Assembly (NCBI GenBank): GCA_027036135.1
Contig: JALVSY010000032.1
Coordinates: 1 to 22,806 of the forward strand
Reading direction: 5' to 3'
From: Pyrodictiaceae archaeon
GTDB taxonomy: Archaea > Thermoproteota > Thermoprotei_A > Sulfolobales > Pyrodictiaceae
Length of the DNA stretch: 22,806 nucleotides
Shown here: in pieces, positions 2,030-22,806 of the stretch
Numbering within the stretch: the first letter of the stretch is position 1
How the letters are laid out: each line of letters opens with the position of its first letter
Notes under the pieces: generated by a model
Database searches by the model: none
The model's input: only the letters and a program-made list of their open reading frames with translations
Told to the model about the DNA's origin: nothing
Made by a program: the position numbers and the translations under genes

Positions 2030-2039
2030 CGTTAGGAGG

Positions 2040-2837: not shown

Positions 2838-2840
2838 GTT

Positions 2841-2905: not shown

Positions 2906-2912
2906 TGTTGTT

Positions 2913-3113
2913 TCATTTCTTGCATATCATGTTTACTAGTCTCTGTAGTTCTTGGTGGGTCTCCTTTGCTATTTGGTAGAGCCTCTGTATTTCGGGGTCC
3001 CTGGGGTAGAGCCGTGCTAGTAGCTCTGCGCGTGCCAGTATCGCTGCTGTGTTCTCTAGTTGCTTGATGAGCTCACGGCAGTACCACTCATGGAACTGTT
3101 TATGGGCCTCCAT
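2913..3113 (-). CDS. Small helical hypothetical protein
   Basis: 66 aa, translationally coupled (TAATG) to the upstream gene. Confidence 0.7.
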   Translation of the reverse strand: MEAHKQFHEWYCRELIKQLENTAAILARAELLARLYPRDPEIQRLYQIAKETHQELQRLVNMICKK

Positions 3114-3382: not shown

Positions 3383-3789
3383 TATCTCATCCTCCAGTTC
3401 TTCACTATGCTCTCTATGTCTCTTATAGAGTTGTAGCCCAGTATGCGCCACAAGGGCTGCTCGAATACTATTACGTGTACTCCCTCGTAGCCTTCCTGGT
3501 CGTGTGAGATAACAAGGGCCCCGTCCTCTCGCACGTAGACCCTGTTATTGGTGCCGCAGTCTCCCATCGCTACCCAGCGGCTGCTTATGTAGACGTGCTT
3601 CTTTTGCTTCATAATGTATTTGTGATAATAGTCCCAGTCATGTGCCTCTATCCACCGTATGTGCTTCACTAGGTCACCCTTGAGAGCGCAATCCGGGTCT
3701 ACAGGACTGGGGCACTCCAAGCGGAGAGGAACAGGTAGGGCCAGGTTGCCTTTCCCGTGTTCTTCTCGTAGATCAATCACACAACCCAT
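3382..3789 (-). CDS. Hypothetical protein
   Basis: Likely start ATG 3789 (MGCVIDLREE) after GGAG; coupled to the wHTH gene. Confidence 0.75.
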   Translation of the reverse strand: MGCVIDLREEHGKGNLALPVPLRLECPSPVDPDCALKGDLVKHIRWIEAHDWDYYHKYIMKQKKHVYISSRWVAMGDCGTNNRVYVREDGALVISHDQEGYEGVHVIVFEQPLWRILGYNSIRDIESIVKNWRMR

Positions 3790-3864
3790 TCTCCTGCCCC
3801 TGGACGAGTGTTCGGGTGGAGAAGGCGGTTTGACGAACATTGAAAAAAGACTCGGGTATAGGGC

Positions 3865-4428
3865 TTAGCGAACCTGTTTCGGTCGGTTGTTCGTTTTCCC
3901 TTGTTTCCTGCTGAGCACTTGTTCGAGTGTTAGCTCCTTCTTCTCCCTGGCAAGGTCTAGTATCTCTGCTATCTTCTCCGGGGTGAAGAACCGTGTTAGC
4001 TCTGGCTTCTCTAGCAGAGAGGCCGCTACGTCGAGTAGCATTGCTGCTACGCTGGCTGCTAGCTCTCGCTCCCTGTCCCAGAGCACCACTCCATTATCGT
4101 CTCTTAGCTCTACCCTGCCGCTTGGGGAGGCCCTTAGGCCCCCCGCTATGCTCCTAAGTGTCCTCACTATCAGCCTAGTGTCTGGGAGAAACACTTTGTT
4201 TACCTCGTTGAGCCACTCAGCCGTCATCCACTTGTTACGCTCCATCACCAGTAGCAAGGCCTCGTAGAGCTCCCTTGCGCTGAAAGTATCCTGTACCCCT
4301 TTCATAACGTTGTCCTTCTCGATCAGCATTATTAGTAGCACGCGGTCGCTGAGCTCCTCTGGGTGCTCGATGAAGAGACTACTGTTGCCAGCAATCTCAC
4401 CGACCCTGGACTGGACACGGATAATCAT
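3865..4428 (-). CDS. Hypothetical protein
   Basis: ATG 4428 after AGGTGAT; in operon order with 4442-5146. Confidence 0.75.
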   Translation of the reverse strand: MIIRVQSRVGEIAGNSSLFIEHPEELSDRVLLIMLIEKDNVMKGVQDTFSARELYEALLLVMERNKWMTAEWLNEVNKVFLPDTRLIVRTLRSIAGGLRASPSGRVELRDDNGVVLWDRERELAASVAAMLLDVAASLLEKPELTRFFTPEKIAEILDLAREKKELTLEQVLSRKQGKTNNRPKQVR

Positions 4429-5233: not shown

Positions 5234-5713
5234 TTACTCTATGTAGAAGTAGAGCCAGAGTACTATGTCTCCGGGCTTTATGTCCTTGATGTCCCCTGGT
5301 TTTTCTAGGCGCTTGTTGAGCCTCGCTACTATGGCTACATCTCCCTCCCATGGCGTATACATTGTTCTATTGACTGGCACGTTTACTCCGAGGAGCCTGC
5401 TCAATAGCTGCGCTGTTGCTGGGTGCCCTATGTAGCTGAGGATGGGTTTGTTATTGTTTCTGAAGTACTGGGCTACTCGCTTGGCTATGTCTGGCGTTAC
5501 TGTGCCGCCACACATCAGGATACCGTACGCTGGTACCAAGGCGTTTAGAAGTACTAGGCGCTTGTATTTTGGCAGGACGTAGCGCTCAACCTTCTCATAG
5601 TCGCCTGCGAAGCAGTGCCATCCACCGTAGAAACCAGATGGGTCTGTAATGAATACGGGGTGAAAAACCTCGGTCTCGGGGGTCTTAGCCTCGAGGACTT
5701 GGGCCTGGGACAT
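5234..5713 (-). CDS. acrIII-1: DUF1874 (STIV B116-like) AcrIII-1 ring nuclease, anti-CRISPR type III, with N-terminal extension
   Basis: Family pattern LLNA...SYIGHPATAQLLSRLLGVNVPVNR...GD.AIV.RL..RL with the catalytic GH and conserved NR; ATG 5713 after GGTGAGAGCC. Confidence 0.88.
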   Translation of the reverse strand: MSQAQVLEAKTPETEVFHPVFITDPSGFYGGWHCFAGDYEKVERYVLPKYKRLVLLNALVPAYGILMCGGTVTPDIAKRVAQYFRNNNKPILSYIGHPATAQLLSRLLGVNVPVNRTMYTPWEGDVAIVARLNKRLEKPGDIKDIKPGDIVLWLYFYIE

Positions 5714-5716
5714 GGC

Positions 5717-5784
5717 TCTCACCCGGGTCTCGCTCGCTCCGGTTCTCTACTGGGCAGGGAAGCGGTATAAAAATCTTAGCCCGT
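5717..5784 (-). promoter_or_regulatory. Repeated promoter and leader, copy 3 (acrIII-1 promoter)
   Basis: Composite of the segments shared with copies 1 and 2; TATA box TTTTTATA at 5773-5766. Confidence 0.85.
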
Positions 5785-5994
5785 GTGTTTTCGGATTCCC
5801 TTTTTCTCGCCTAGCCTGTAGAGCCTGCATAGCTCCCACTCGCGTATCTCCTTGCCCAGGGACTCGCTGTATATTGCCCCACAGCACCTATCCGGGACGA
5901 CTACGCACGTGCCTCCCCCATCCCTGCACAATCGTAGCTCTATGGCTACGAGGCAATGACCGTGCTCCAGGAAGGGGCAGCAGCGCCTAGGCAT
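5776..5994 (-). CDS. Small Cys-rich protein
   Basis: 72 aa with 8 Cys; overlaps the methyltransferase stop. Confidence 0.6.
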   Translation of the reverse strand: MPRRCCPFLEHGHCLVAIELRLCRDGGGTCVVVPDRCCGAIYSESLGKEIREWELCRLYRLGEKKGIRKHTG

Positions 5995-6550
5995 TGCTGA
6001 GTAGCCCCCACCACGTGGTGGGGTTCTCCTTGTTGTAGTCTATATACCTGGTTACTGGTAGCCACTTCTCCTCTGCCACGACTCTGAAACCCTCTGGGAC
6101 CCACGTGGTCTTGTAGTGCACGAAGAGGTATCTGGCTCCGAGCTCTCTAGTAGCCCTAGCCGCTGCTTCGAGGATGAGCCTGTGGGACCCTAGTGCTTTG
6201 TCCAGACCGAAGTGGCGGCGCTTGCTATTACCCCTCTCTATCCATGGTGGATCCACAACTACTACGTCTACGTGTATGCCTAGCTTCTTCACTGTTTTCC
6301 ATGACTGCCACGCTGGCTTTTTGATAAAGATGTCTGGCTCTACCACCCAGTCTAGGCACGCTATATCTGCGCCGATTAATAGGCTCGGCCTCGAGGCCGC
6401 CCAGAACCGGCCCTCCCCATAGGTTGTATCGAATACCACTAGCTCGGCGGGGCTGAGCCCAGCCCTCTCCAACAACATCTTAACCATGCACGATACGGGC
6501 GCTCTTGCACACGGTCCTCCTAGTTTCTGTACCTCAAGCTGGGTTATCAC
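5987..6550 (-). CDS. Minimal SAM-dependent amino-methyltransferase (N6-adenine/N4-cytosine type)
   Basis: Motif I VFDTTYGEGRF, motif II GADI, motif IV VDVVVVDPPW. Confidence 0.85.
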   Translation of the reverse strand: MITQLEVQKLGGPCARAPVSCMVKMLLERAGLSPAELVVFDTTYGEGRFWAASRPSLLIGADIACLDWVVEPDIFIKKPAWQSWKTVKKLGIHVDVVVVDPPWIERGNSKRRHFGLDKALGSHRLILEAAARATRELGARYLFVHYKTTWVPEGFRVVAEEKWLPVTRYIDYNKENPTTWWGLLSNA

Positions 6551-8321: not shown

Positions 8322-8633
8322 GTGGCCGAGCAAGTAAAAAACAATGAGAACAACGAGCTAGAGGTAAAGCACTTAAGGAACATGCTGATATACGGGCTAA
8401 TATTCGCTGTCCTGTTCTTCGCCGGTGGGATAGGGCTAGCCGCTATACTCAAGATAGCTGGAGTACAGGAGCTACTGAGCAGCAGCCTGTTCAACACAAT
8501 GGGGTATAAGACTACTGCGCAGGTACTACAAGCCAGCGGGCTCAACGACTTCGGCATGGCTGGCATCATTAAGTGGGCACTGACAGCAATAGGGTTCACT
8601 GTTGGTGCCTTAATAGGCTGGAAGAAACAATAA
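8322..8633 (+). CDS. Membrane protein with two hydrophobic helices (possible virion membrane protein)
   Basis: GTG after GGTGA; hydrophobic segments LIYGLIFAVLFFAGGIGLAAIL and GIIKWALTAIGFTVGALIGW; TATA-like CTTATA upstream. Confidence 0.8.
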   Translation: MAEQVKNNENNELEVKHLRNMLIYGLIFAVLFFAGGIGLAAILKIAGVQELLSSSLFNTMGYKTTAQVLQASGLNDFGMAGIIKWALTAIGFTVGALIGWKKQ

Positions 8634-8635
8634 CC

Positions 8636-8899
8636 CTAGAGCCTAGTCCCCATCTTTTTTGCTTTTCTCCAGGCGCTCCAGAACCTGGCTCTCAGCTCTC
8701 TCATGCTCCTACCGCTGGCTACCTGGCTGCCGTTCATGTAGAGCCTTAGTACTCTTTGCTGCCTCGAGCGCGGCTTGTAGGCTCTCTCCCTTATGCAGCC
8801 TAGCCCGAAGTAGTTGCCGAGCTCCAGCACTATCTCCGCTATCTCGTCCTTGTCCCAGTCCTCGGGAAAGTACAGGGTGAATAGCCTCTTGCATCTCAT
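8636..8899 (-). CDS. Small basic hypothetical protein
   Basis: 87 aa, ATGA-coupled to 8896-9588. Confidence 0.7.
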   Translation of the reverse strand: MRCKRLFTLYFPEDWDKDEIAEIVLELGNYFGLGCIRERAYKPRSRQQRVLRLYMNGSQVASGRSMRELRARFWSAWRKAKKMGTRL

Positions 8900-11885: not shown

Positions 11886-12110
11886 ATGAACCCCCTAACA
11901 AGCCTTAAGAAGCTGGCTCACTACGCCTGGGGCCTACTAACAGCACTAGTAGCACTAGTGGCACCCGTGCTCTCGGCACTAATGTTCCTAGGCTTCATAG
12001 TCTACGAGCTAGACGAGGAGTGGCACATACGGGACAAGAGCTACAACGATATACGCGAGATGCTCATAGGAATGGGGATAGGAGTAGTAATAGCAATACT
12101 CATAGCATAG
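11886..12110 (+). CDS. Small multi-pass membrane protein
   Basis: 74 aa with 2-3 hydrophobic segments and conserved-looking polar residues (KKLAHY, YELDE, DIRE). Confidence 0.75.
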   Translation: MNPLTSLKKLAHYAWGLLTALVALVAPVLSALMFLGFIVYELDEEWHIRDKSYNDIREMLIGMGIGVVIAILIA

Positions 12111-12173
12111 ACAGGCAACAAGAAGGAGCAAGAGAAGAAAGAAAACCAGCCAAGTAGTGAGCCAGCTTCTTTA

Positions 12174-13607
12174 TCATGATAGCTGTACCTTGTACATCTT
12201 CTTAGCCGCTAGGTCTACCACTACTAGGTAGTAATAGGTACCATCATAGTACAGTAGATGAGGTATCCATGGGCTCAGCGGGTACAGTCCAGCATCGAGC
12301 TCGCTCTGTATAGTGTTTAGCTGGTCGGTTCCATATACTCCTACGTCTGACAGGTTAACGTCTAGCCATATCTTAGCCCAAGCTGTGTTATATGTAGCAT
12401 TAGCAATCACGTTGCCAACGATTATGTTGTGCTTCGCGTAGTCCCACACGTATATCGCGTAGTCCGGGGTCTTGTCCTCTGGGTCAAGATAGTTGAACGC
12501 CACCAAGTTGTGCTCGAACCTAGCCTCCTCCGAAGCACCAGTCGCGTAGATACCAGTACCACTGAACCTCCTTATCTGGTTGAAAGCTATCAACGAGTTC
12601 TTTACACTCCACGCGTTTATACCAGTACCAACATCGGATATATAGTTGCCAATTATTATGTACCTGCCGTTCGCTATCGGGTACAACCCAATACTAAAGT
12701 TACTAATAATATTATTCGCTATTACTGCCTTGTTGATGGCGGCGTTCCCGCGTATGAACGCTGTCCTACCAACCGTACCAGCGTACGGGTACCCATCCGG
12801 TACCATACCATCAATAATGTTCTCCGTGAACACGGTCTCCAAGCAATCTAGATAATTAGCCGAGAACACGTAGTTAGGGTGCTTGCCAGGGTCACCGTTT
12901 GCATTATTTCCTTTAACAATGTTGCGGCTAAATATTATCTTGTCATATGCCTCAGCGGTAACACCATACGCTACGTTCTCGAAATAATTATCAACGATTA
13001 TTATCTCCTCGTGGTCTATTATCCCGCTCTCACAATCAACACACGTTATCCAAATCGCCTCCCTAGCCATGTCCTTGAACACATTGCCAATGAATTCAAC
13101 TTTCCGTGCTCTGAGTACACTAACTCCTACATGAACCGGGGCTCCGGCAGCCTCGGTGTACTTCTGTGATATGTTTCGCTCATTACCATCAAAGTAGCAG
13201 TTAATGAACCTCACTGGTCCATCTAGTAGTGGCTCCCCCTTGTTATTCCCAACATTGAAGAAGCTATGGGAATTAGTACCAATGCTTGGGTCTCTAACGA
13301 ACTTGCCTCCAACAATTGTCAATGGCTTCGTTATACTGACCTGCCCCTTGAACAAGAAATCTCCGAGACCAGCTACTACTCCATGGTCTGGAGCCGCCTC
13401 GACTGCCTGTCTCCAAACACTCGCGTGGTCAGTTGACTCCGCTATCTTGTTGCCGTGCTTGTCTACTGCTACTGCGTTACCATTATCATCCAGGTAGACT
13501 ACCACGTCGGCTGTTTTGAGGGCTATGTTACGCATCCTGTCATAGTCTATGGGGCCGTATACCCCGCGGTGCTCCATGTCGTAGTCGAATCCCCCGTATA
13601 GGCTCAC
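12174..13607 (-). CDS. Parallel beta-helix (pectin lyase-like) spike / receptor-binding protein 1
   Basis: Repeated I/V-x-x-N-x-F/I rungs (FIGNVF, IVDNYF, IANNII, IIGNYI, IAFNQI); N-terminal module shared with the gene at 21365-22806; likely start GTG 13607. Confidence 0.85.
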   Translation of the reverse strand: MSLYGGFDYDMEHRGVYGPIDYDRMRNIALKTADVVVYLDDNGNAVAVDKHGNKIAESTDHASVWRQAVEAAPDHGVVAGLGDFLFKGQVSITKPLTIVGGKFVRDPSIGTNSHSFFNVGNNKGEPLLDGPVRFINCYFDGNERNISQKYTEAAGAPVHVGVSVLRARKVEFIGNVFKDMAREAIWITCVDCESGIIDHEEIIIVDNYFENVAYGVTAEAYDKIIFSRNIVKGNNANGDPGKHPNYVFSANYLDCLETVFTENIIDGMVPDGYPYAGTVGRTAFIRGNAAINKAVIANNIISNFSIGLYPIANGRYIIIGNYISDVGTGINAWSVKNSLIAFNQIRRFSGTGIYATGASEEARFEHNLVAFNYLDPEDKTPDYAIYVWDYAKHNIIVGNVIANATYNTAWAKIWLDVNLSDVGVYGTDQLNTIQSELDAGLYPLSPWIPHLLYYDGTYYYLVVVDLAAKKMYKVQLS

Positions 13608-13933
13608 CAGTAGCCCCACCTCCGCAGCCTCTCCTCTATCCTCTTGTCAAGGATTGGGTAGATTTGCCTCAGCTCCCCTATCAGTATTCTTCCATGGTAC
13701 CTGCTACTACTCAGCGACTCGTACTCCTCCCGGCTAACCGGTACCCCGAACGTTGTCCACCAGTCCGTGGCCGGGTCCTTCATGTGGACGTCGCAGTGCA
13801 GGAAGCCCTGCGATGCACGGTAGCACCGGAAATCGTGCAAGAGTAGCGGCTCGCTTGTGAACGGGCTGTAGAGCGGCTCCCTGGGCAGGATAACGTAGTC
13901 GTTGTTTACCCGCTTTATCTCCCAGAAACGCAT
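13604..13933 (-). CDS. Hypothetical protein
   Basis: 109 aa, GGGGAG RBS, coupled to spike 1. Confidence 0.75.
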   Translation of the reverse strand: MRFWEIKRVNNDYVILPREPLYSPFTSEPLLLHDFRCYRASQGFLHCDVHMKDPATDWWTTFGVPVSREEYESLSSSRYHGRILIGELRQIYPILDKRIEERLRRWGYW

Positions 13934-13944
13934 GCTCCCCGCCC

Positions 13945-14523
13945 TTAGAACTCTAGAGCCGCTATATCTACTGACACGGTTGCGCTGGTGCTTGTCGCGG
14001 AGCTCTCCACGCTCACGTCTATCTCCACTATCCTGGAGCCATCAGCCAGTACCGTGAAGTCGAGGTCAGCTATAGTCAGTGTTACCGCGGCGCTCACACC
14101 GCTCTTGCTTGCAAGTGTGTAGCTATTACCGCTCTGATCCTTCGCTATTATATCGATGGTTAGTGTCTCGGAGGTGCCTAGTCCGCTTGGGGTTAGCTTG
14201 ATAGTTAGAGGCAAGAGGTTGTAATAGTCGGTGTCGGTGCCGAGAACCTTGGTTGTCACCGGGCTACCGGATGCCCCGGCGCTCGCAGTTATCCCTGTAG
14301 CCACGTGGTACCTGCTGACACTGCTCCAGTCTATCGGGTCTGCCCCTCCCCTGTCGTGCCTAGAGCCGTGGCTCGCCAGCTCTATTCCGCCCGGGTATAT
14401 CTTAGTACTATCCATTAGTGATGGGTCGCTGCTGCTCTGCCAGCTACTAAGCTGAGAGCCAGAGTGGTCCAGGCGCAGGTCCTCGCTGCCAGGGGGTATG
14501 CGCTTCAACTCCCCTATCACCAC
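13945..14523 (-). CDS. Putative virion spike/vertex protein
   Basis: HGSRHDRGGADPI (H-x3-H-x2-GG-x-DP, a motif I associate with viral fibre proteins) followed by a S/T-rich beta-sandwich. Confidence 0.7.
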   Translation of the reverse strand: MVIGELKRIPPGSEDLRLDHSGSQLSSWQSSSDPSLMDSTKIYPGGIELASHGSRHDRGGADPIDWSSVSRYHVATGITASAGASGSPVTTKVLGTDTDYYNLLPLTIKLTPSGLGTSETLTIDIIAKDQSGNSYTLASKSGVSAAVTLTIADLDFTVLADGSRIVEIDVSVESSATSTSATVSVDIAALEF

Positions 14524-14554
14524 TTATACAGCTAGCAGGCTAGGGGGATAACTC

Positions 14555-15517
14555 TTACCCACAGAGAGGCCCAGTGCAGACATCCCGGAACCTTATCTCC
14601 TTGAGGAGAGCCGCGCACGTGGTAGGGCTCCACTCCCTGTAGCAGAGCCTTATCCTCACAGTGTTGACGCAGATGCATCCCTGCCCAGGATGCCTCTTGA
14701 TAACCACCCTTACCGGCCCTGTATCGCTCCCGCTAAGCCTCGCCTCCGCTAGCTGTATGAAGCCTAGCTCTGGATCGGTCTTGCCCACGACTACATCGTA
14801 CCAGAGACCACTATTGCTCGGTAGCTCCGGGAGCCCCTCCACGTCTATCACTATCTCGTCCCCCGTCCCCTCGGCGCCCACTACCCTTACACTGCCTATG
14901 TCAAGGACGCTGTACACAGCGCGGTAGCCCCTCACCCCACTAGTATCCGGCACAGCCTCCACGACCAGTGTGCCCGGCCTAAGCATGTACGGGTACAGGT
15001 CTATCACCGCGTAGCTGTTTATCCCGGAGCAGGCGTGCCTGGTGACCAGCAGCCTATCGTTATTGTATATCCTAATAGTCGAGCACACCGTCTTATCAGG
15101 GTATCCTGCGACCGTGTAGTGCACCGGCACCACGGCCATCCTGTGAGCAGTACCGTTGACTGCGTCGAACCAGATGTACTCGTCACTAGACCTATCAATA
15201 ACCACTAGGTGGTCAAGGGAGTTAGCGACACTGACTATTACCATGTAGGGGAGATAGTATAGCTCCGCATAGGTCTTGACACGATAGGTGCCTGGCTCCC
15301 GGAATACTAGGCTAAAACTATACGTCGCGGAGCCACCGCTAATGTCCTCGGTCAGTGTCTTAACCGGCTTAGCGAAGTCGTTCACGTATATCTCTACGTA
15401 TAGCTGGCCCAGCTTGACGGTCTCGCTGAGCCGCACCGACCCAGTGAAGTTGACTGGCTCGCCTACCCCCACCCTCGTCTTATCCGGCTTAATCGTGTTA
15501 GAGACCACTTCTGCCAA
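14555..15517 (-). CDS. Multi-domain Ig-like protein (putative fibre tip/adhesin)
   Basis: Likely TTG start at 15517 after GGAGGGAGAGG; first domain IKPDKTRVGVGEPVNFTG...FSLVFREPGTYRV is paralogous to 15679-16026. Confidence 0.75.
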   Translation of the reverse strand: MAEVVSNTIKPDKTRVGVGEPVNFTGSVRLSETVKLGQLYVEIYVNDFAKPVKTLTEDISGGSATYSFSLVFREPGTYRVKTYAELYYLPYMVIVSVANSLDHLVVIDRSSDEYIWFDAVNGTAHRMAVVPVHYTVAGYPDKTVCSTIRIYNNDRLLVTRHACSGINSYAVIDLYPYMLRPGTLVVEAVPDTSGVRGYRAVYSVLDIGSVRVVGAEGTGDEIVIDVEGLPELPSNSGLWYDVVVGKTDPELGFIQLAEARLSGSDTGPVRVVIKRHPGQGCICVNTVRIRLCYREWSPTTCAALLKEIRFRDVCTGPLCG

Positions 15518-15678
15518 GTCCTCTCCCTCCGGGAGTAGAAAGGCGGATAGGAGAGAGATATGGGTAGCGGGGAGAGGGTACACCCAAGCGAAACTGCTCT
15601 GTACAGGTCCCCGAGGAAATGGGCTGAAGAAAAACACGGGTATAGGGTTTCAGCCGCCCCGGGAATAGTTTCGGTTAA

Positions 15679-16026
15679 TCAGAGCATCGCTCCAGATCCT
15701 CTTATGCCGCAGGGCCCCGTGTACACGTATGCCTGTACAGTGTACTTGCCGGGCTTCTCGAATACCAGGCTGAAGCCTATGTTCGCGCTCCTGGCTCCCT
15801 CGGAGTAGCTGCCTACCAGTACGCCGCTTCTCTGCTTAGAACCGTTCACGTAGATGTCTGCGTAGACGCATCCGGGGCCGGGGGCTGGGGCAGTGAACCT
15901 TGCATAGCCACTGAACGCCACTGTCTCCCCGGGAGAGACCGTGCTCTTGTCCGGGGCTATGTAGGCGCTCGCTACGTCGAACTCCTCCTGCACGGTTACC
16001 TCTACCTCGTTGCTCCAGGCACCCAT
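15679..16026 (-). CDS. Single Ig-like (PKD/CARDB-type) domain protein with N-terminal WSNEVEVTV strand
   Basis: IAPDKSTVSPGETVAFSG...IYVNG...FSLVFEKPGKYTVQA. Confidence 0.8.
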   Translation of the reverse strand: MGAWSNEVEVTVQEEFDVASAYIAPDKSTVSPGETVAFSGYARFTAPAPGPGCVYADIYVNGSKQRSGVLVGSYSEGARSANIGFSLVFEKPGKYTVQAYVYTGPCGIRGSGAML

Positions 16027-16180
16027 GCTCTCAACCGGATAGGAGTATGCAAGAAACGGGATAGATAAGCCCTACCGTGGCGCCCAAGCCCACCTATATA
16101 TTTTGCGCACCCGTTCATATCCACACGGGTGAGCAGTGTTGACAAGCAAGCCCCTTGGCCAGGGAGACCAGGGGGAGGGA

Positions 16181-16426
16181 TTGCGCGACGAGGAGATAGC
16201 CTCGAGGCTCTCGAGCCTAGAGACACGCGTAGAGTACATGGAGAAGATGCTACAGGACATCTATAACAGGCTAGACAACATGGATAAGCGGATAACAGAG
16301 CTAAGCGACCGCATAGCAACCATGGACGTGAACCACGTCTCGGTAAAGTGGCTGATATACATGGTTGTTATACTGCTGAGCTTCGTGGCAGCCATGTTTG
16401 GTCTCGGGTGGCGCCCGCCGCACTAA
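16181..16426 (+). CDS. Coiled-coil protein with C-terminal transmembrane helix (XhlA-like architecture)
   Basis: Probable TTG 16181 after GGAGG; heptads RLSSLETRVEYMEKMLQDIYNRLDNMDKRI; TM WLIYMVVILLSFVAAMFGLGW. Confidence 0.75.
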   Translation: MRDEEIASRLSSLETRVEYMEKMLQDIYNRLDNMDKRITELSDRIATMDVNHVSVKWLIYMVVILLSFVAAMFGLGWRPPH

Positions 16427-16427
16427 C

Positions 16428-16524
16428 TCCATTCAGATACTCGTACTCCATTCAGAAAAAGTGACGGGGTACTAGGCGCTGTGATGGAGTTCGGGGACTG
16501 AATGGAGGAACAGGGACTGAAAGA
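16428..16524. repeat. Symmetric TCCATTCAG-box element, copy B
   Basis: TCCATTCAG at 16428 and 16447, GTGACGGGG at 16461, ATGGA at 16484, CTGAATGGAG at 16498. Confidence 0.85.
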
Positions 16525-16526
16525 AG

Positions 16527-17003
16527 CTATAGGCTGTAGAGCTTGAGGATTATCAGCCAGGCCTCCAGGAACTTTATTGTGGCTGGAGTATTGCTCGGGT
16601 TAACTATCCTCGCTACAGCCCTTGACCGGAACGGGACGCCTAGACCTCCCTGCGGAGAGTACCCTATCACGTAGACGTTGTTGGTGGAGTCGTACCTGTA
16701 GAGAGTTATTATGCCTGGGTTGGTGCCCACTGCTCCTAGCTCGTAGAGATCCCGTGGACTAACATCTATCTCCAGCCTACCGTCGGCGTGCAGGTCTACC
16801 TGTAACCGTGTATCAGGGTTATCCGTCATCAATATGACGTAGTAGAGCCAGCCACTGGCGCTCCTATCCCATATAGTCCACTCCTTGCCGGGGCCTAGCA
16901 CGTAGTTGTTCTGCCTATAGACCTCCCATCTCCACAGGTCACTGGCTGGGAAGAACCCGAGCCCGGGCGGGTAAAAAACGGTCTGGGACACGCTCTGCGC
17001 CAA
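16527..17003 (-). CDS. Beta-rich putative virion protein (possible jelly-roll)
   Basis: TTG after GGAGGTGA; alternating hydrophobic strand pattern; last gene of the structural operon. Confidence 0.7.
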   Translation of the reverse strand: MAQSVSQTVFYPPGLGFFPASDLWRWEVYRQNNYVLGPGKEWTIWDRSASGWLYYVILMTDNPDTRLQVDLHADGRLEIDVSPRDLYELGAVGTNPGIITLYRYDSTNNVYVIGYSPQGGLGVPFRSRAVARIVNPSNTPATIKFLEAWLIILKLYSL

Positions 17004-17009
17004 CTAGTG

Positions 17010-17357
17010 TCACCTCCACTCTATCTCGACTACTACCTGCACCTTGTTAGCAGTTATCGCCTCACCTGTCTTAGCATAGATGCTGGCTAGGCTGGTGCTG
17101 GTGCTCGCGGCCTCGGCGGCTGGCAGGTCTCCCTCGCTGAGAACCACGGTGGAGCCAGCCACTGCCTTTATCGCTGGCAGTAGCTGCTTAAAGGTAGAGG
17201 CATCCCCATTCGTTATGCTACCTATTAGCACCGTGTGGTCAGCACTATCGGCATTGTATATCATTATCTTCCTGACAACGGCCTTCCTCTCCGGGGGCAC
17301 TGTTAGTAGAGCAGCCCCCGTGTCATCTATCTCTACCAGTGGAGACGCGGCCCTCAC
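17010..17357 (-). CDS. Beta-sandwich putative virion protein
   Basis: LLTVPPERKAVVRKIMIYNADSADHTV resembles small jelly-roll penton/minor capsid proteins; RBS GGGGTGA. Confidence 0.7.
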   Translation of the reverse strand: MRAASPLVEIDDTGAALLTVPPERKAVVRKIMIYNADSADHTVLIGSITNGDASTFKQLLPAIKAVAGSTVVLSEGDLPAAEAASTSTSLASIYAKTGEAITANKVQVVVEIEWR

Positions 17358-17363
17358 GGCTCA

Positions 17364-17933
17364 TCACCCCGAGCTGCTCGGCGGGTAGCCAGCGACCGGT
17401 ATCACTGTGTACTTCTCCGGCTCCGCGCTGACCTGGCTAATTACGTACCGGAACCCGTACATCATTATCCTTGCCACTGGTTGCTCAGTGAACAACGGGT
17501 TGAGCGGCTGCACTGTAGGCACGTACTCTGAGCCATACGTGTATATCTCAGCTAGCTGCTCCTTCCCGATGGCATTGTCTAGTGGGCTCACTGGTGTCTG
17601 CTCGCTAGCGGTCTGGTACTTTGGCATAGCCCCGGGCAGGTTAACGTCTAGCAGGAAGTCGTCGAGCACCACTAGTCTCCACTGGCCCCACTCGCTGCTA
17701 CCAAGCTTCATCTCGTCGAGCCTCGCAGTCGGGCCCGGCATGGGCCAGGTACTGGTACTGGCGGCTGGGAGTGGCCCAAGATCCCTTACCATTGGCTGTA
17801 TTGGCTCAATGTAGACTACTCTGCCGTAGACCGGCTTGCTCCCGGTGCCCAGGTATAGCTTGACGTAGTCCCCTATCTTGACTATTGGCTCGAACTCCTT
17901 CTTGTATAGGACGTACTGCGCCGTGACGCTCAA
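17364..17933 (-). CDS. Putative capsid protein (beta-rich)
   Basis: Probable TTG 17933 after GAGGTGAT; about 190 aa, beta-rich, in the structural operon. Confidence 0.65.
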   Translation of the reverse strand: MSVTAQYVLYKKEFEPIVKIGDYVKLYLGTGSKPVYGRVVYIEPIQPMVRDLGPLPAASTSTWPMPGPTARLDEMKLGSSEWGQWRLVVLDDFLLDVNLPGAMPKYQTASEQTPVSPLDNAIGKEQLAEIYTYGSEYVPTVQPLNPLFTEQPVARIMMYGFRYVISQVSAEPEKYTVIPVAGYPPSSSG

Positions 17934-17975
17934 GGGTCTATCACCTCTCTCGCTCACACATGTGTAAAAAACACG

Positions 17976-18290
17976 TTACATGCCTATCGCTATTATCTTG
18001 AAGCCTACGCTGCTTAGATCCGTGTTAGCCGCTACCTCCTCTGCTGGGCCAGCCGCCGTGGCCGGGTAGTTGAAGTCATAGACCTTTATCGTTACCGTGT
18101 TACCGCTTATACTGGCCACTTCTGCCATGTAGCCAGCGCTGGCTACTACTATTGCTTCCTCTACTCTCTCGAGCTCGTCAATGGTTACCGTGAAGCCGCC
18201 AGTGGAGTAGCTACTGGGCCCAGTAACGGTCTTTACCACTAGCTTTGGCCTGGCCTTCCCCCTTGCCCTGGATAGGTTATAGGCTGGCGT
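17976..18290 (-). CDS. Small virion decoration/fibre-like protein, possibly initiating at ACG
   Basis: YSTGG...EEVAANTDLS pattern seen in viral structural proteins; the frame is open upstream of track start 18239 to ACG 18290, which follows GGTGAGCGAGAG. Confidence 0.7.
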   Translation of the reverse strand, partial: TPAYNLSRARGKARPKLVVKTVTGPSSYSTGGFTVTIDELERVEEAIVVASAGYMAEVASISGNTVTIKVYDFNYPATAAGPAEEVAANTDLSSVGFKIIAIGM

Positions 18291-18313
18291 CTCTCGCTCA
18301 CCCCGCTACCTGT

Positions 18314-18850
18314 TTATGCGCCGGTCACTACCTCGCCCTTTGGCTCAGCCTTGAGCGCTAATAGGAATACTTTCTCGTTCGCTGGCGTGGTTACGCCGCT
18401 TGGCAGGTAGAGCTGCACGAGTAGCTTATCGCTCTCACTGAATACCAGTGGGTTGGTGAAGTAGCCCTCTGGCTCCTGCTTGACGTAGAGCTTCTCGAGC
18501 TCCACTAGGTATATCGGTGTAGCGCCCTTGAATATCTTCATTGCAGTCGCGACTGGGTTGTCGTTGTTGTTGCCGACGCCGAATATGACTATGAACTCGT
18601 CGTCCCCTAGTGTATAGTTTATCACTGTGTTCCAGGCGCCGGCTGTGTCCAGTGTCTCCTCCCACTTGTTATCGCTCATTCCTAGGTCGTCCTTGGGCAG
18701 GACGTCTCGTATGATGTAGTCCGCTGGGTTCTTGCCCTTGGCGCGTATAGCGTTCATCAGTGCCTCTATGGCTTTCTCTCTTAGTAGTTTCTTCTCCTCG
18801 TCTTTTAGGGCGTCCGAGCCTAGGACGTATGACACGGCTGCCTCCGCCAC
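18314..18850 (-). CDS. Putative major capsid protein (single jelly-roll with helical N-terminus)
   Basis: First gene of the operon with a perfect GGAGGTGA RBS before GTG 18850; N-terminal helix then about eight strands (NTVINYTL, FIVIFGV, AMKIFKG, PLVFSESDKLLVQLY, KVFLLALKAE). Fold is inferred. Confidence 0.6.
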   Translation of the reverse strand: MAEAAVSYVLGSDALKDEEKKLLREKAIEALMNAIRAKGKNPADYIIRDVLPKDDLGMSDNKWEETLDTAGAWNTVINYTLGDDEFIVIFGVGNNNDNPVATAMKIFKGATPIYLVELEKLYVKQEPEGYFTNPLVFSESDKLLVQLYLPSGVTTPANEKVFLLALKAEPKGEVVTGA

Positions 18851-18859
18851 GTGGTTCAC

Positions 18860-18951
18860 CTCCTACCCGTCTCGTGTAGATATGAAAGGAGGCGTGGGGA
18901 GACATATCTAGGGCCGTGCAGGGGTATACACCTGTACACGGAGTGGGAGAC
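18860..18951. promoter_or_regulatory. Divergent promoter between the capsid operon and the AbrB operon
   Basis: Inverted pair TAGATATG (18877-18884)/CATATCTA (18903-18910); GTATAC-N4-GTACAC at 18924-18939. Confidence 0.55.
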
Positions 18952-19143
18952 ATGGTTGACGTGTCCCGCGCGATAGGGATAGCCAGGGTGGATGGGAGGC
19001 AGAGAATAGTCCTGCCCAAGATTATACGCGAGGAGCTGGCCCTCAAGACAGGGGACTACGTGGTCTTCTACCTCAACGATAACGGGGAGATATGCATAGC
19101 GAAGGCACGGTACCCTGAGCGCGTGAAAGCAGTGCTTATCTAG
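18952..19143 (+). CDS. AbrB/MazE/SpoVT family DNA-binding protein
   Basis: ARVDGRQRIVLPKIIREELALKTGDYVVF is the canonical AbrB pattern; ATG 18952 after GGGAG. Confidence 0.9.
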   Translation: MVDVSRAIGIARVDGRQRIVLPKIIREELALKTGDYVVFYLNDNGEICIAKARYPERVKAVLI

Positions 19144-19178
19144 AGCCGTTCTTGCAACTCTAGTAACTGGTGAGGAGG

Positions 19179-19352
19179 ATGGGTAAGTGGAGCAACGAGG
19201 TAACAATAACCGTTACTGCTCCCGGTAAGCCGCCGGTGAAGCAGCCAGTGGAGACCCAGCAGGTAGCTCCTAGCAAGAAGCCCAGCCTAGGAGCAATAGT
19301 AGCGCTCGGGGTCATAGCCGCGCTGTTCGCCTATATGCAGAAGAAGAGGTGA
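19179..19352 (+). CDS. 57-aa membrane-anchored peptide: WSNEVTITV strand, Pro-rich linker, TM helix
   Basis: ATG 19179 after GGTGAGGAGG; TM LGAIVALGVIAALFAYM followed by QKKR. Confidence 0.8.
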   Translation: MGKWSNEVTITVTAPGKPPVKQPVETQQVAPSKKPSLGAIVALGVIAALFAYMQKKR

Positions 19353-19358
19353 CGCTGC

Positions 19359-19820
19359 TTGCCGGTAACGAGCGGCATCATCATCAGAGGCGCCTACGAG
19401 TACCCGAGCGGCCTAACAACCGTGGTGAGGGTAGCGGCTGTACCAAGCTCCGGGGACGAGTACGCCTCCCTGCTACGCGGGCTGACGAGCGGCAAGTCCT
19501 CCAACAGGGTGCCCCAGCTCATAAGGGCCCGCGTGTACTACTACGCCGCGCTCACCAGCTACGAGCCCTGGCCCAACGCTCCCAAGTACTGCCCAGTAGT
19601 CATTGACCTCGTGGGCGTGGAGTGGACTGGCAAAGAGTACCTAGCAGCTAGGATACCGTTGTCGCTGGACAAGAACGTTGCAAGGGGAGTAGTGGACGTC
19701 ACTGAGCACTACAGGCTCCCACCGCTCCTATTGACCCCGTGGAGGCTCGAGATAGGGGTTGACTGCCGGAAAGCAGTCCTAGGCCTATACATAGCTCTCT
19801 ACGTCGAGTGGGGGTGGTAG
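19359..19820 (+). CDS. Beta-rich hypothetical (putative virion) protein
   Basis: TTG after GAGGTGA; 153 aa. Confidence 0.75.
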   Translation: MPVTSGIIIRGAYEYPSGLTTVVRVAAVPSSGDEYASLLRGLTSGKSSNRVPQLIRARVYYYAALTSYEPWPNAPKYCPVVIDLVGVEWTGKEYLAARIPLSLDKNVARGVVDVTEHYRLPPLLLTPWRLEIGVDCRKAVLGLYIALYVEWGW

Positions 19821-19821
19821 C

Positions 19822-20361
19822 GTGGAGCTGGTGTGGAGCGCTGGTCTGGAGCCCCCTGGCGAGGTAAGGGAGCTCTGCACCGGCAGTATGAGCAACTGTC
19901 AGCAATACTACCTAGAGCCCGGCAGGCTCTACCACGTAGAGGTAGTGGTGAAGGGGGACCCCAGGGGCCCCGAGAGCCTCTACGAGCTCCTCCGGAGACT
20001 ACTCGAGGAGTACCCTGGGGTCTACCTAAGCTACATAGCTGTCTACAGGATGGATAACGAGAAGTCGAAGATAGTCATAGAGGTGTTCGACCCACCGCTC
20101 GGGGAGAGCCTGGTACTAGTAGAGATAATAGCGATACTAGCCCTAGTCATAGGGATAATAGTTGCGATAAAGGTTGCTGGCCTCGAGGACGCTGTCGAGA
20201 ACGTGAGCATCGGCCTAAAGTACCTCGGCGAGGCCGCCGAGGAGGCAGCCAAGGCGTTCTACAGGTACATGGAGAGCCACCCGGTACTGGGCGGGCTGAG
20301 CCTATCAATACTACTTATAGGCCTAGGCGCCTTTCTATTACTAAGGGGTGGGGAGAGGTGA
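19822..20361 (+). CDS. Membrane protein with two TM helices
   Basis: LVLVEIIAILALVIGIIVAI and VLGGLSLSILLIGLGAFLLL. Confidence 0.8.
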   Translation: MELVWSAGLEPPGEVRELCTGSMSNCQQYYLEPGRLYHVEVVVKGDPRGPESLYELLRRLLEEYPGVYLSYIAVYRMDNEKSKIVIEVFDPPLGESLVLVEIIAILALVIGIIVAIKVAGLEDAVENVSIGLKYLGEAAEEAAKAFYRYMESHPVLGGLSLSILLIGLGAFLLLRGGER

Positions 20362-20822
20362 GCGAGGCACTCGCGAGGGCACGGGAGTACGCTGGAGAAG
20401 CACTGGGTAGGGCGAGGCAGTACGCCGCCAAGGCGTACAGGTACGCACGGGAAGAGATAGGGCTGGAGAGCCTGCTCGGCCTAGGAATAGTGCTTGGGGG
20501 CCTAGCCCTCCTAGCCAAGAGCATCCACGCCGGGGAATCCAATGAGAAGAAGATACACATCCACGTAGACGCAGACGGGTACCAGGGAGCCTACGCCGCC
20601 TTCGTGCTCACCAAGTGCACGGGTAGCGACTGCTACCTGGAGGCCGGGAGCCAGAAAGTAACCCAGCCATGGCACATGGTACTGATATGGTGCACTGGGT
20701 GCACGGCTCTAGACGAGACCGTCACCGTGAAGTGGAGGGACTGTGACTGGTACCTGGAGCTAGGCGTGTGCCAGGACAGCTCCTGCACCGAGAGGAAAGC
20801 ACTGAAGCGGGTAACCCCCTAG
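20358..20822 (+). CDS. Single-TM protein with Cys-rich beta domain
   Basis: GTGA coupling; TM LLGLGIVLGGLALLA; several Cys pairs. Confidence 0.8.
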   Translation: MSEALARAREYAGEALGRARQYAAKAYRYAREEIGLESLLGLGIVLGGLALLAKSIHAGESNEKKIHIHVDADGYQGAYAAFVLTKCTGSDCYLEAGSQKVTQPWHMVLIWCTGCTALDETVTVKWRDCDWYLELGVCQDSSCTERKALKRVTP

Positions 20823-21157
20823 CCCATGCACTCTTTTCTTATCCTCTCCCATGCCTTTTCCGCTACCTCCTCACTGAGGGAGCCTGTATCCAGGCCACCA
20901 GCCCCCTCCCTCACAGATACCCCTAGCTCGGAGAGAACCCGCTTCACGCAACCATAGTCAGCCAGCACCAGCACCTCCACCAGGTCCCGTGGCCTCCGGG
21001 GCACGCTCGCTCTGAGCCTCTCGGCCTCCTCCCCGTTCACCTTGTTCTTCTCGACGTTCACCTTCCTGTAACAGTTTGGACATGTAGCGTACATCTTGTT
21101 GCCCCTGTAGAGCCAGACATGCCCGCAGTACGGGCACCTAAGCCAGACACCACCCAC
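20819..21157 (-). CDS. Zinc-ribbon DNA-binding protein
   Basis: CPYCGHVWLYRG...ATCPNCYRKV; RBS GGTGAG. Confidence 0.85.
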   Translation of the reverse strand: MGGVWLRCPYCGHVWLYRGNKMYATCPNCYRKVNVEKNKVNGEEAERLRASVPRRPRDLVEVLVLADYGCVKRVLSELGVSVREGAGGLDTGSLSEEVAEKAWERIRKECMG

Positions 21158-21322
21158 TACCCACTCACCACCTACTACTAGCCACCCACTACTAGTTTAA
21201 ATAACCTACTACCTACTACCCACTCACTAGCCACCCACCAGGCTACTAGCCAGCCACCTACTACCCACTACCCACCAGTACAGGAGACGACGACGAATAC
21301 TACTGGTGACGACTACTAGTCA
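21150..21322. repeat. Imperfect CCACTAC/CCTACTAC tandem array around a TATA box
   Basis: Many CTACCCACT, CCTACTA and CTAGCCACCCAC units flank TTTAAATAA (21196-21204). Confidence 0.75.
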
Positions 21323-21364
21323 GCACAGCCTAGAAAGAGTAAACAACTAGTAGAAAAAGAGACT

Positions 21365-22806
21365 CTAGACCTCCGCCTCCCAGTACAAGCAGACATTATC
21401 CGTGCCGCTCGGTGGCGCTGTGCTATAGTTCACGTAGATATAGGTGTCATCAACCGTGACGTAGAACTCACCAGCAGCATCAGCGCTACATGGAGTAACC
21501 ACTACCTTTGATGGAGCCGCCACCAGTCCATGCGCTATCTTGAACTGGGTAGTACTGCCATCCCCGCTGAATACTGCCTTGCCATAGTTACTTCCGCGCT
21601 TAGATGTACTATAATAGTTTACATTATGGGAGAATTTCTTGAACGTTGTTGAAGCACTCACACGTATTATTCCGTAACCTCCAAAGTCGTTATCTAATAT
21701 TGACAAGTTCTGTGCAGGATTCACGCCTGTGTCTGTGCTTGCATCATATATTGCTATAAACACGCTGCTGTATCCAACAAACTTGTTACCAACAATATCA
21801 ACATCATCAGTAGCTCCATATCCCCCGACACCGATAACTCCTACCAAGGTCTCATTGTATGGTGAGCAGTTAACGAATATGTTGTTTATTATCTTTCCAT
21901 ACTGGACTCTCTCAAAGTTAACCGTTATCCTGCCAGCAACGTTGTCAAACAAATTGTTCGATACTATGACATAGTATGACATCGGCGGGTCACTACCAAT
22001 AGCCGAGCTCTTGGTATTATAGAAGTAGTTCCCGTGTATCACTACATATTTCGCGTTCGGGTCTGTCGCACTACCACTACCAAGCACAATATTGTTTCCA
22101 CCAGTGGCGTTTCTGAAGATATTGCCTATGACTAGCACGTTTACAGCGCGCTCAATGCGGAGATTATTCGGCGCCTTACCGCTTATCGTCTCCTCATTGT
22201 CGAACACGTTCCCAACAATAATCACATTACTAGCATGAGCGGTGGTGATTCCGTCATCCGTTGAGTCAAGTATCCTGCTATTAGCAACAATTACTTTCTC
22301 AGAGCCAGTCCACAACGTGCCATGCCTAATCACCGAATTAATTATTGCTAGAAGCGAGTAGCCAGAGAAGCATCCTTGCACAAACACTACTCCTTTGTTA
22401 TAATAATCAATTGGGTCAATGATCACATTATCTAGTATTACATGTCCACCACTTGGTTGCTCCCCCGATCCACAACCACACATACATGAGTTGTTGCTTA
22501 TCTACACGTTTCTGAACCATATGCCTTTAAACACTACATTCTTTCCATTGAGATATATGAATCCATTGCTTGCAGTAGTCGGTCTATATAGTACTGCACC
22601 ATAGCCCTCGATTACCACGTCATGTGTAATTGTTATCTTCTCTGTTATAGTGTACGTTCCACCGAGTAGCACTATTTTCCCATTCTCTGGTGCGTAATCG
22701 ATACCGCTCTGTATCACGGCTGAGTGCTCTGTGCTCGGCCCTGCTACGCGGCGAGCGTACCTATCTATTGCTACTGCTCTGCCGTACTCGTCTAGGTATA
22801 TTATTG
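21365..22806 (-). CDS. Parallel beta-helix spike protein 2, 5' end outside window, interrupted by in-frame TAG at 22502-22504
   Basis: Track ORFs 22502-22717 and 21365-22483 share a frame, which stays open to the window edge (IIYLDEYGRAVAIDRY...STEHSAVIQ, paralogous to spike 1); C-terminal FKIAHGLVAAPSKV fibre-type domain. Confidence 0.8.

Follow-up and report, generated by a model that had tools for sequence, protein, structure and literature searches.

The contig examined here, 22,806 nucleotides long and called the window throughout, is a circular archaeal mobile element (22.8 kb). One reading frame runs closed across both contig ends, and the element is matched by 21 of the 75 CRISPR spacers found in its assembly. 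A STIV_B116-like domain with matches in rudi-, lipothrix-, bicauda- and fuselloviruses is encoded on it, together with an AbrB/MazE-type protein and two beta-helix proteins. A search of 10 window proteins against PHROGs returned no capsid family, and the sole match was a weak tail-fibre match of a 481-aa beta-helix protein. Nothing in a phage collection was matched by positions 12000-22806 (megablast) or by the 115-aa protein described below, a 197-aa protein and a 179-aa protein (tblastn). Related-locus searches found no relatives in viral contigs, with either the 115-aa protein or its counterpart from a related element as the query, and none in metagenome or genome contigs with alignment A1. 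In the protein atlas, the 181-aa protein of the capsid module resembles unnamed viral clusters (0.98) at a recognition value below the mark set for it, and the 197-aa capsid-module protein gave nothing usable; the two are leads only. All 30 bins of positions 14500-19400 are covered by four DNA metagenome runs belonging to one study; since these consist of contigs, they do not allow gene levels to be ranked. No RNA run containing the region was listed.

Three genes of this element are the subject of this report. An earlier note had proposed that they encode a three-part donor-strand fibre consisting of a membrane anchor, a repeating subunit and a tip, and all three reading frames are found where it had placed them. 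The subunit (P0001, 115 aa) is encoded at 15679..16026 on the minus strand and comprises, based on its translation, an AF2 model, alignment A4 and a three-copy model, a donor strand, a 5-aa linker and a six-strand Ig body A-F that lacks strand G. Its N-terminal sequence is MGAWSNEVEVTV, and the protein begins straight with the acidic strand MGAWSNEVEVTVQEE (codons 1-15, 15982..16026, minus strand), delimited by the three-copy model and homologues. These 15 residues are invariant or conservatively replaced across three close homologues. The Ig body (codons 17-104, 15715..15978, minus strand) contains, in the three-copy model, a groove between strands A (17-25) and F (91-103). AF2 places strands at residues 6-14, 18-25, 35-44, 52-60, 63-74, 80-88 and 94-104, with no strand after 104 and a disordered tail at 110-115 (pLDDT <50); the Ig domain has nothing past strand F that could serve as G. 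The match of P0001 to PKD is weak (E 0.009, 16.4 bits against a Pfam cut-off of 23.5). Foldseek with its model against the PDB gave weak generic beta-sandwich matches only (best E 0.016, TM ≤0.48) and no help in deciding between strand insertion in cis and in trans.

The 57-aa protein (P0002; 19179..19352, plus strand), with the N-terminal sequence MGKWSNEVTITV, is a strand-only anchor as judged from its translation, its hydrophobicity and the homologues P0011 and P0012. Its strand (residues 1-12, 19179-19214) is followed on the same strand of the DNA by a Pro-rich linker (residues 13-35), a transmembrane (TM) segment (residues 36-53, 19284-19337; Kyte-Doolittle mean 2.2) and the C-terminal tail QKKR. 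Both homologues keep this type of strand and the TM segment, and the linker varies.

The 320-aa protein (P0003; 14555..15517, minus strand) starts with TTG preceded by a GGAGG-like motif, and three database homologues are called from the same start. According to BLASTP and AF2, it contains an Ig domain, two more beta-sandwich domains and a Cys-rich C-terminal hairpin; the AF2 model (pLDDT 87) is all-beta with about three sandwich domains. The proposed paralogy of its first domain with the Ig domain of the subunit is upheld by 34/84 identities (40% over 84 aa, E 2e-13). P0003 lacks an N-terminal strand of the P0001/P0002 type, and the earlier note had made it the donor-less tip of the fibre. 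This role is not supported by the AF2 model, in which its own strand 92-97 begins four residues after F (80-87), and P0003 has no counterpart in the related element L039. Foldseek with the P0003 model found only generic tandem Ig/FN3/macroglobulin arrays (TM ≤0.33). P0003 was set aside as a strand-accepting cap since its first domain appears complete in the model, and the window yielded no acceptor-only cap.

The N-terminal strand of the subunit and the anchor

The 115-aa and 57-aa proteins have in common the N-terminus MG[A/K]WSNEV..TV, as had been noticed from the sequence at the outset. Eight of the 11 residues after the initiating Met are identical, and the next best among 4,095 N-terminal pairs (ATG-started ORFs of at least 40 aa in the window) shares five. 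In a motif scan, the window and L039 each gave two N-terminal donors and no more. The motif is kept in homologues of both proteins and, in an exhaustive profile search, lies at residues 3-7 in 22 of 31 matches of ≤160 aa. The 5' leader of P0001 (16027..16076, minus strand) resembles the P0002 leader (19129-19178, plus strand) in alignments A3 and A5, and both leaders contain a GGTGA/GGAGG-like ribosome-binding motif. The possibility that the strand is the tail of a broken upstream Ig gene was rejected: the region upstream of P0001 is a leader with a TATA-like box, the stop codon of the AbrB-type gene precedes P0002, and in 22 clusters the distance of the strand from the start is only 3-7 residues.

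L039, a distantly related element, has five genes in common with the window (33-69% identity). Its subunit of 111 aa starts with MVRSNTITIHV, and its anchor of 48 aa, 414 nt from the subunit, starts with MRSNTITITV and continues with a linker, a TM segment and KKR. The two strands co-vary between the elements, with WSNEV in the window and RSNTI in L039. Of the three genes, the subunit and anchor pair recurs in L039, and the 320-aa gene is absent there. The co-occurrence of anchor and subunit is seen in two elements; in three shorter contigs of 2.6-7.4 kb (L005, L040, L041) the subunit is present and the anchor was not found.

Relation to tandem Ig arrays

On the basis of alignments with tandem arrays, the strand of P0001 and P0002 is a homologue of the last (G) strand in PKD/CARDB-like tandem Ig domains, in agreement with the assignment made in the earlier note. 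In these arrays (P0029, P0030, P0044, L042) the pattern SN-x-h-x-h-x-h follows strand F after a turn of 2-3 residues, and the next domain comes after it. A 913-aa frame of a cellular homologue gives eight abutting matches to the family profile, each to positions 3-102, so the repeat period equals the strand plus strands A-F. The profile matches many multi-repeat Ig proteins, and a weak alignment of this kind is also obtained with two tandem-Ig proteins, FCRL5 and T4 Hoc. Among the 27 members of alignment A4, PKD (PF00801) is matched at E ≤0.01 by nine (best E 8.4e-5) and CARDB (PF07705) by five (best E 6.2e-6).

Compared with such arrays, P0001 corresponds to one repeat, cut so that a G strand comes first and its own domain lacks one, and P0002 corresponds to the C-terminal end of an array, with G strand, Pro linker, TM segment and basic tail. 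The covalent array of L042 ends in just this order (Ig, VKSNVITITV, Pro linker, TM, RRRT), and a fused form (P0087) consists of an Ig domain followed by KWSNEVTIVV, a linker, a TM segment and KALKR. The linker is 5-11 aa long in all 27 members of A4, and in 20 of the 27 no more than 14 residues follow the Y of G-x-Y; the C-terminus of P0091, another member, is the G-like TSNIQLV. In P0085 and in a 164-aa ORF of L043, an extra N-terminal strand precedes complete Ig domains and a TM segment; the extra strand has no groove in cis. An N-terminal TM segment in P0042, P0073 and P0084 would put the Ig domain on the opposite side of the membrane, so the topology is not uniform across the family.

Assembly model and alternatives

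A homotrimer of P0001 was predicted with ESMFold2 from its own alignment (A4). In the model, residues 1-15 of one copy are inserted between strands A and F of the next, antiparallel to F (contact pairs 101:5, 98:8 and 95:11) and parallel to A (22:5, 25:8 and 29:11). The donor residues touch acceptor residues 17-25 and 91-103 and are the only residues of a copy that contact the next copy; the whole acceptor interface comprises residues 17-25, 27-32, 34, 36, 38, 42, 56, 87, 89 and 91-103. The ipSAE values of the runs, which express the model's own confidence, are 0.78, 0.79 and 0.77, compared with 0.23 for the best of three controls; at least 98% of contacts are common to the runs, with a partner pLDDT of at least 85. 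In a calibration based on two copies rather than three and on other alignments, 20 of the 30 proteins solved as pairs reached the ipSAE mark, as did 1 of the 23 solved as single chains. The model may simply be repeating what is known from the many tandem-Ig and pilus interfaces already solved. The claim that the N-terminal strand fills the open groove of a neighbour in trans is borne out in silico, in the canonical orientation, as strand insertion modelled between copies.

These lines of evidence slightly favour the reading, at a probability of about 0.55, that P0001 and P0002 are separated parts of a tandem-Ig surface array that are rejoined by non-covalent donor-strand complementation. P0001 would be the repeat unit in a shifted phase, with the G strand of the preceding domain first, then the 5-residue linker and strands A-F. 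Because the linker is very short, a canonical insertion of the strand into the groove of its own domain would be out of reach; the strand would instead be donated to a second P0001, where it would lie antiparallel to F and parallel to A and stack the two domains head to tail as in the covalent array. The P0002 strand would fill the groove of the membrane-proximal P0001 and so anchor the chain, the distal end of which would then carry a free N-terminal strand. The role of P0002 as strand donor is supported computationally by its strand-only, membrane-spanning layout and by the recurrence of the pairing in L039 and in the fused forms. A signal peptide is absent from all three proteins, so the assembly would be on the cytoplasmic face of the membrane; this location would fit the envelope of a virus that is built intracellularly, P0002 being a tail-anchored protein of it. 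Binding of P0002 to P0001, the chain length, the membrane topology and the placement on a virion are inferred, and the assembly may be a long fibre or a short chain. Of the three-part fibre originally envisaged, computation supports the strand homology, the G-less subunit, the insertion in trans and the gene pair, and does not support the tip.

A simpler arrangement of the same parts is an anchor with one subunit and no fibre, in which the P0002 strand completes a single P0001 to give a split, membrane-tethered Ig domain, and the strand of P0001 itself stays free or docks onto another virion or host protein. The fused form and the array end support only the anchor-Ig pairing, and the window has two donor types, one acceptor type and no cap, as this arrangement would have it. 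It is nevertheless rather unlikely, as the three-copy model shows a confident subunit-subunit interface of the same kind, the subunit is one period of a multi-repeat array, and the strands of P0001 and P0002 are nearly identical, so that a groove taking one should take the other. P0001 could also be a circularly permuted monomer, a soluble single-domain Ig protein whose strand completes its own domain in cis and whose likeness to the P0002 N-terminus reflects common descent only. The AF2 monomer partly bears this out: strand 6-14 folds back as a hairpin beside strand A (18-25), which makes a self-complemented monomer possible. However, residues 1-10 have a low pLDDT of 62, and with a turn of just 3 residues the strand has to take the reverse direction to its homologue, strand G, in tandem arrays. 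The strand-only P0002 and the extra strands of P0085 and L043 have no cis groove at all, and the three-copy model prefers insertion in trans, which leaves the permuted monomer somewhat less probable still than the single tethered domain.

The likeness of the two N-termini may also be that of a duplicated 5' cassette or of a tag for a third factor (membrane targeting, packaging or regulated translation) rather than of a structural strand. In the window the two genes do resemble each other as DNA from roughly -50 to +36, with identity at 28 of the first 36 coding bases. In L039, however, the strands are kept as protein: subunit and anchor use different codons at 4 of 8 identical residues, which argues for selection on the peptide and not for recent copying, and their leaders share little beyond the GGTGA motif. 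As the segment is also homologous to a structural strand of Ig arrays, a cassette or tag is improbable.

The preferred reading of a split and rejoined array can be extended, tentatively and with doubt about the whole, to a modular, secretion-independent and chaperone-free donor-strand kit on mobile elements of hot-spring and vent archaea. Such a kit would have arisen by phase-shifted fission of covalent tandem-Ig surface arrays. Its parts would be strand-only or strand-tipped tail anchors as donors, strand-plus-Ig subunits as both donors and acceptors, and G-less Ig proteins as acceptors, which would join on the cytoplasmic face of the membrane to form surface fibres of enveloped virions assembled in the cell. 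A free monomer may guard its own groove with the strand folded back in reverse, and would thereby act as its own chaperone until exchange.

Comparison with known strand-donation systems

Donor-strand complementation is known from secreted bacterial pili and a few archaeal cell-surface filaments, and type 1 and P pili of the chaperone-usher class polymerise through a strand-donating N-terminal extension. The Ig-like subunit of these pili, described in part in PMC9715654, lacks its last strand, and the N-terminal extension fills the groove of a neighbour antiparallel to F. The P0001 trimer model predicts the same geometry. Unlike chaperone-usher subunits, P0001 has no signal peptide and is related in sequence to PKD/CARDB-type repeats and not to pilins; the anchor is a strand-only TM protein, the genes are on an archaeal mobile element, and no chaperone or usher family was found among 30 window ORFs scanned against Pfam. 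The thread of Sulfolobus acidocaldarius (Saci_0406) is described in PMC9715654 as assembling head to tail by donor-strand complementation through an N-terminal strand with no known chaperone, from subunits that are Sec-secreted with cleavage of the signal peptide, glycosylated, isopeptide-cross-linked and encoded by cellular genes. P0001 as modelled resembles this archaeal thread in head-to-tail N-terminal strand donation, but it is encoded on a mobile element and lacks a signal peptide, whereas thread genes are cellular and the subunits secreted. A search of the A4 profile against PDB sequences (E ≤1) listed 11 sequences, none of them a thread or a pilin. Cannulae (CanA), bundling pili and Tat-fimbriae are likewise listed as polymerising by strand donation without a chaperone; these are cell-surface structures of cellular origin with other folds or families, and none among those listed is on a virus-like element.

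Covalent tandem PKD/CARDB-like arrays with a C-terminal TM segment (G629:C28, L042) belong to the same sequence family, have repeats at profile positions 3-102 and end with a G strand, Pro linker, TM segment and basic tail, the exact layout of P0002. Each domain of these arrays receives its G strand from the same polypeptide, whereas in the window the array appears split into separate genes. This suggests a simple evolutionary route to strand-donation filaments, in which a covalent tandem-Ig array is cut one strand out of phase. Strand donation would here occur in a different setting: a 115-aa PKD/CARDB-related subunit without a signal peptide, a membrane anchor made of nothing but a strand, a linker and a TM helix, and a vent archaeon's mobile element, targeted by CRISPR spacers, as the carrier of the genes. 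The man-made SpyTag/SpyCatcher pair is an engineered Ig-like domain in two pieces, a one-strand peptide and a remainder, which reassemble and are locked by an isopeptide bond; unlike this pair, P0001 and P0002 show no sign of a covalent lock. If the assembly sits on a virion, archaeal viruses would have in it an appendage of a new kind, and it would serve as a self-assembling protein connector of very small size and probably high thermostability.

Three genes and the origin of the strand that two of them share

The subunit P0001 (15679-16026, minus strand) is a 115-aa protein with the N-terminus MGAWSNEVEVTV, and P0002 (19179-19352, plus strand) is a 57-aa protein with the N-terminus MGKWSNEVTITV, which is followed by a Pro-rich linker, a hydrophobic segment at residues 36-53 (Kyte-Doolittle mean 2.2) and QKKR. 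P0003 (14555-15517, minus strand) is a 320-aa protein with a TTG start preceded by a GGAGG-like motif, and its start is called at the identical position in three database homologues. The N-termini of P0001 and P0002 are identical at 8 of the 11 residues after Met; the next-best pair among 4,095 ORF pairs of the window has 5 residues in common. Residues 3-83 of P0003 align to residues 17-100 of P0001 with 40% identity (E 2e-13). The three frames, the common N-terminus and the paralogy of P0001 and P0003 were all described in the earlier note and are borne out.

A search of 1.84 billion representative proteins with a profile built from P0001 and three close homologues gave 84 matches at E 1e-3 or better, of which 31 have a length of 160 aa or less. 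An S/T-N-x-h-x-h-x-h segment is found 3-7 residues into 22 of these short proteins; behind it come a linker and an Ig body, and the chain ends soon past strand F. Linker length across a 27-member family alignment (A4) is 5-11 residues, and the Y of G-x-Y is followed by 8-27 residues, at most 14 in 20 members; one member, P0091, carries the G-like TSNIQLV at its C-terminus. The remaining matches are multi-repeat Ig proteins. A 913-aa frame in the genome of an archaeon from the same phylum contains eight abutting matches, each to profile positions 3-102, so that one repeat period comprises the strand together with strands A to F. The SN segment in multi-repeat arrays follows strand F after a 2-3-residue turn and precedes the next domain, and FCRL5 and T4 Hoc, both weak matches, are aligned as in the tandem arrays. 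P0001 thus has at its N-terminus a homologue of strand G, the last strand, of a preceding domain, in support of the last-strand identity first proposed for the SN segment. Judged from these alignments, P0001 reads as a single repeat unit cut out of phase.

Two cysteines of P0001, C53 and C106 (window about 15709-15870), are invariant in the protein and its three close homologues and are also found in the homologues P0013 and P0014, though not in more distant family members. One lies where strand C begins and the other directly past strand F, and the pair may form a disulfide staple beside the groove.

Proposed strand exchange between polypeptides

The evidence for the assembly is computational throughout. 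The AF2 monomer of P0001 (four sequences; pLDDT 82) has a disordered tail and strands at residues 6-14, 18-25, 35-44, 52-60, 63-74, 80-88 and 94-104. Completion of the domain by its own strand has this model partly on its side, as the N-terminal strand folds back onto strand A through a three-residue turn; against it stand a mean pLDDT of 62 for residues 1-10 and the modelled hairpin itself, which gives the strand a direction opposite to that of the homologous G strand. Three copies of P0001 were also modelled with ESMFold2, using alignment A4 and three controls, and reached ipSAE values of 0.78, 0.79 and 0.77 compared with 0.23 for the best of the controls, with a contact agreement of at least 98% between runs and a partner pLDDT of at least 85. 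Calibration of the score gave 20 passes among 30 proteins solved as pairs and 1 among 23 single-chain structures. It was made with two copies and the tool's own alignments, and a pass can reflect resemblance to complexes of known structure. The scored copy contacts its neighbour through residues 1-15 only, and the contact residues of the neighbour are 17-25, 27-32, 34, 36, 38, 42, 56, 87, 89 and 91-103. The best contact pairs are 101:5, 98:8 and 95:11, antiparallel to strand F, and 22:5, 25:8 and 29:11, parallel to strand A, so that the donated strand is placed in the canonical G slot of the model. The groove of the scored copy has no confident occupant, and the modelled chain is thus open-ended and not a ring. 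The three-copy model favours complementation in trans in the A/F groove, short of demonstrating it, and to that extent supports the subunit-subunit pairing expected in the earlier note.

The anchor and other combinations of the same modules point in the same direction. One of the tandem-Ig arrays described above (L042, whose frame has an unresolved X run further up) ends in an Ig domain, VKSNVITITV, a Pro linker, a TM segment and RRRT, a layout that P0002 reproduces as a separate protein. Among the database homologues, an Ig domain of P0087 precedes KWSNEVTIVV, a linker, a TM segment and KALKR; both ends of P0050 carry a strand, and a TM segment is present; and P0085 has an N-terminal strand, complete Ig domains and a C-terminal TM segment. 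A 164-aa ORF of another locus (L043, G674:C5; 1480-1974) combines an N-terminal strand, PPPP, an Ig domain, strand G and a TM segment. P0042, P0073 and P0084 consist of an N-terminal TM segment and an Ig domain of strands A to F only (G-less), and P0064 and P0065 have a C-terminal G-less Ig domain without a donor strand. One family thus includes both groove-less donors and donor-less grooves, an arrangement that is sensible only with strand exchange between polypeptides.

The pairing of anchor and subunit recurs in L039, part of a 29.6-kb contig from another genome of the same order that has five genes in common with the window (33-69% identity). Within 900 bases, L039 encodes a 111-aa subunit with the N-terminus MVRSNTITIHV, a 107-aa donor-less Ig protein (8335-8658) and a 48-aa anchor-like protein in which MRSNTITITV precedes a charged linker, a TM segment and KKR. 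Anchor and subunit strands, both of the RSNTI type in L039, thus co-vary between the two elements. The DNA likeness of the P0001 and P0002 5' ends in the window spans about -50 to +36; the codons of the L039 subunit and anchor differ at 4 of 8 identical strand residues, which speaks for selection acting on the peptide rather than for a merely copied 5' cassette. A 307-aa protein of L039 (10925-11848) is composed of an N-terminal domain, an Ig domain, strand G, a PQ-rich linker and a TM segment.

The expected co-occurrence of all three genes holds in part. P0006 and P0007, homologues of P0001, and P0009 and P0010, homologues of P0003, come from contigs of matching sizes (3402 and 6609), and this equality suggests that close relatives carry both genes side by side on one contig. 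The anchor and subunit are paired again in L039, where no P0003 homologue is present, and no anchor was found on three shorter contigs (2.6-7.4 kb) with the subunit. The role of P0003 as the tip of the fibre is not borne out, both for its absence from L039 and for its AF2 model (pLDDT 87), in which a strand at residues 92-97 (YMVIVS) lies four residues past strand F (80-87). The first domain therefore appears to own a G strand, without an obvious groove; a further two domains of seven strands each and a hairpin rich in Cys come after it. Some relatives, P0036 and P0064 among them, resemble donor-less acceptors; P0003 as modelled does not look like one.

Proposed topology and comparison with known systems

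No signal peptide is evident on reading the sequences of P0001, P0002 and P0003, and P0002, P0085 and P0087 have what appears to be a tail-anchored layout. Assembly would take place on the cytoplasmic face of the membrane, and the chain would come to lie outside an envelope acquired inside the cell, in the order P0002, P0001 copies and a free N-terminal strand from the membrane outwards. Strand donation is established in chaperone-usher pili and archaeal threads (PMC9715654), and also in cannulae, bundling pili and Tat-fimbriae. The window proteins differ from these systems in that they have no secretion signal, no chaperone or usher family appeared among the 30 window ORFs scanned against Pfam, the subunit corresponds to an ordinary Ig-array repeat shifted in phase, the anchor is a strand-only TM protein, and the genes are located on a mobile element. 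A full-text literature search, as judged by titles and the opening of abstracts, returned no strand-donation fibre of an archaeal virus, and a donor strand, a virion and an Ig-like domain were not found together in full text.

The element

The window spans an entire contig, C32 (22,806 bases), one of 40 in a 2.2-Mb assembly whose rRNA genes have their best matches in the archaeal Rfam models. A minus-strand frame runs off both contig ends (window 1-973 and 22502-22806) and closes in frame over 430 open codons, which makes a complete circular contig probable. The product of about 425 aa opens with a Q-rich coiled coil, and its C-terminal part resembles the N-terminal region of a 481-aa beta-helix protein. 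The GC content is 0.533 compared with 0.497 in the rest of the assembly, and the tetranucleotide correlation with the chromosome is 0.81 compared with 0.98-1.00 for three large contigs. Crude extraction from the same assembly (contigs C7, C9, C36 and C40) gave 75 CRISPR spacers, of which 21 hit the window (E 1e-3 or better), many along their full length and many with 100% identity. Five of the matching spacers come from a 1.24-Mb contig, and the targets include 16361-16402 and 19015-19052. Metagenome contigs carry pieces of the window flanked by the CRISPR repeat.

Pfam matches comprise a STIV_B116-like domain (5234-5722), an AbiEi-type HTH and an AbrB/MazE-type protein directly upstream of P0002. 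The B116-like protein is 27-44% identical to those of rudiviruses, lipothrixviruses, bicaudaviruses and fuselloviruses. Two right-handed beta-helix proteins (12174-13619 and 21365-22483, minus strand; Pfam Beta_helix, E 1.8e-13 and 8.2e-8) may serve as receptor-binding or depolymerase-like fibres, and an L039 ORF shares 69% identity with the C-terminal part of the second. Ten proteins of the window matched no PHROG capsid family, and four queries against the phage collection matched no described virus. The window is judged to be an archaeal mobile element, and probably a virus of an undescribed group.

Five small genes on the minus strand (16527-18859; 181, 87, 197, 115 and 158 aa, the 115-aa one not being P0001) have no Pfam or PHROG family and may form a particle-forming module; the 197-aa and 115-aa genes are 43-44% identical to adjoining genes of L039 (4975-5882). 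Between this conserved module and the subunit gene lies a spacer-targeted 96-aa ORF (16136-16426, plus strand), whose N-terminal part is a coiled coil and which has a single TM segment at the C-terminus. A 187-aa ORF (5987-6550, minus strand) has no Pfam match at E 0.1 or better and contains VVVDPPW, which we take to resemble the catalytic motif of N6/N4 DNA methyltransferases. Summed contig word depth over 14500-19400 is about 1,700-4,100 in one metagenome run compared with 36-107 and 1-12 in others, and the element may be very abundant in that run, contig depth being distinct from copy number.
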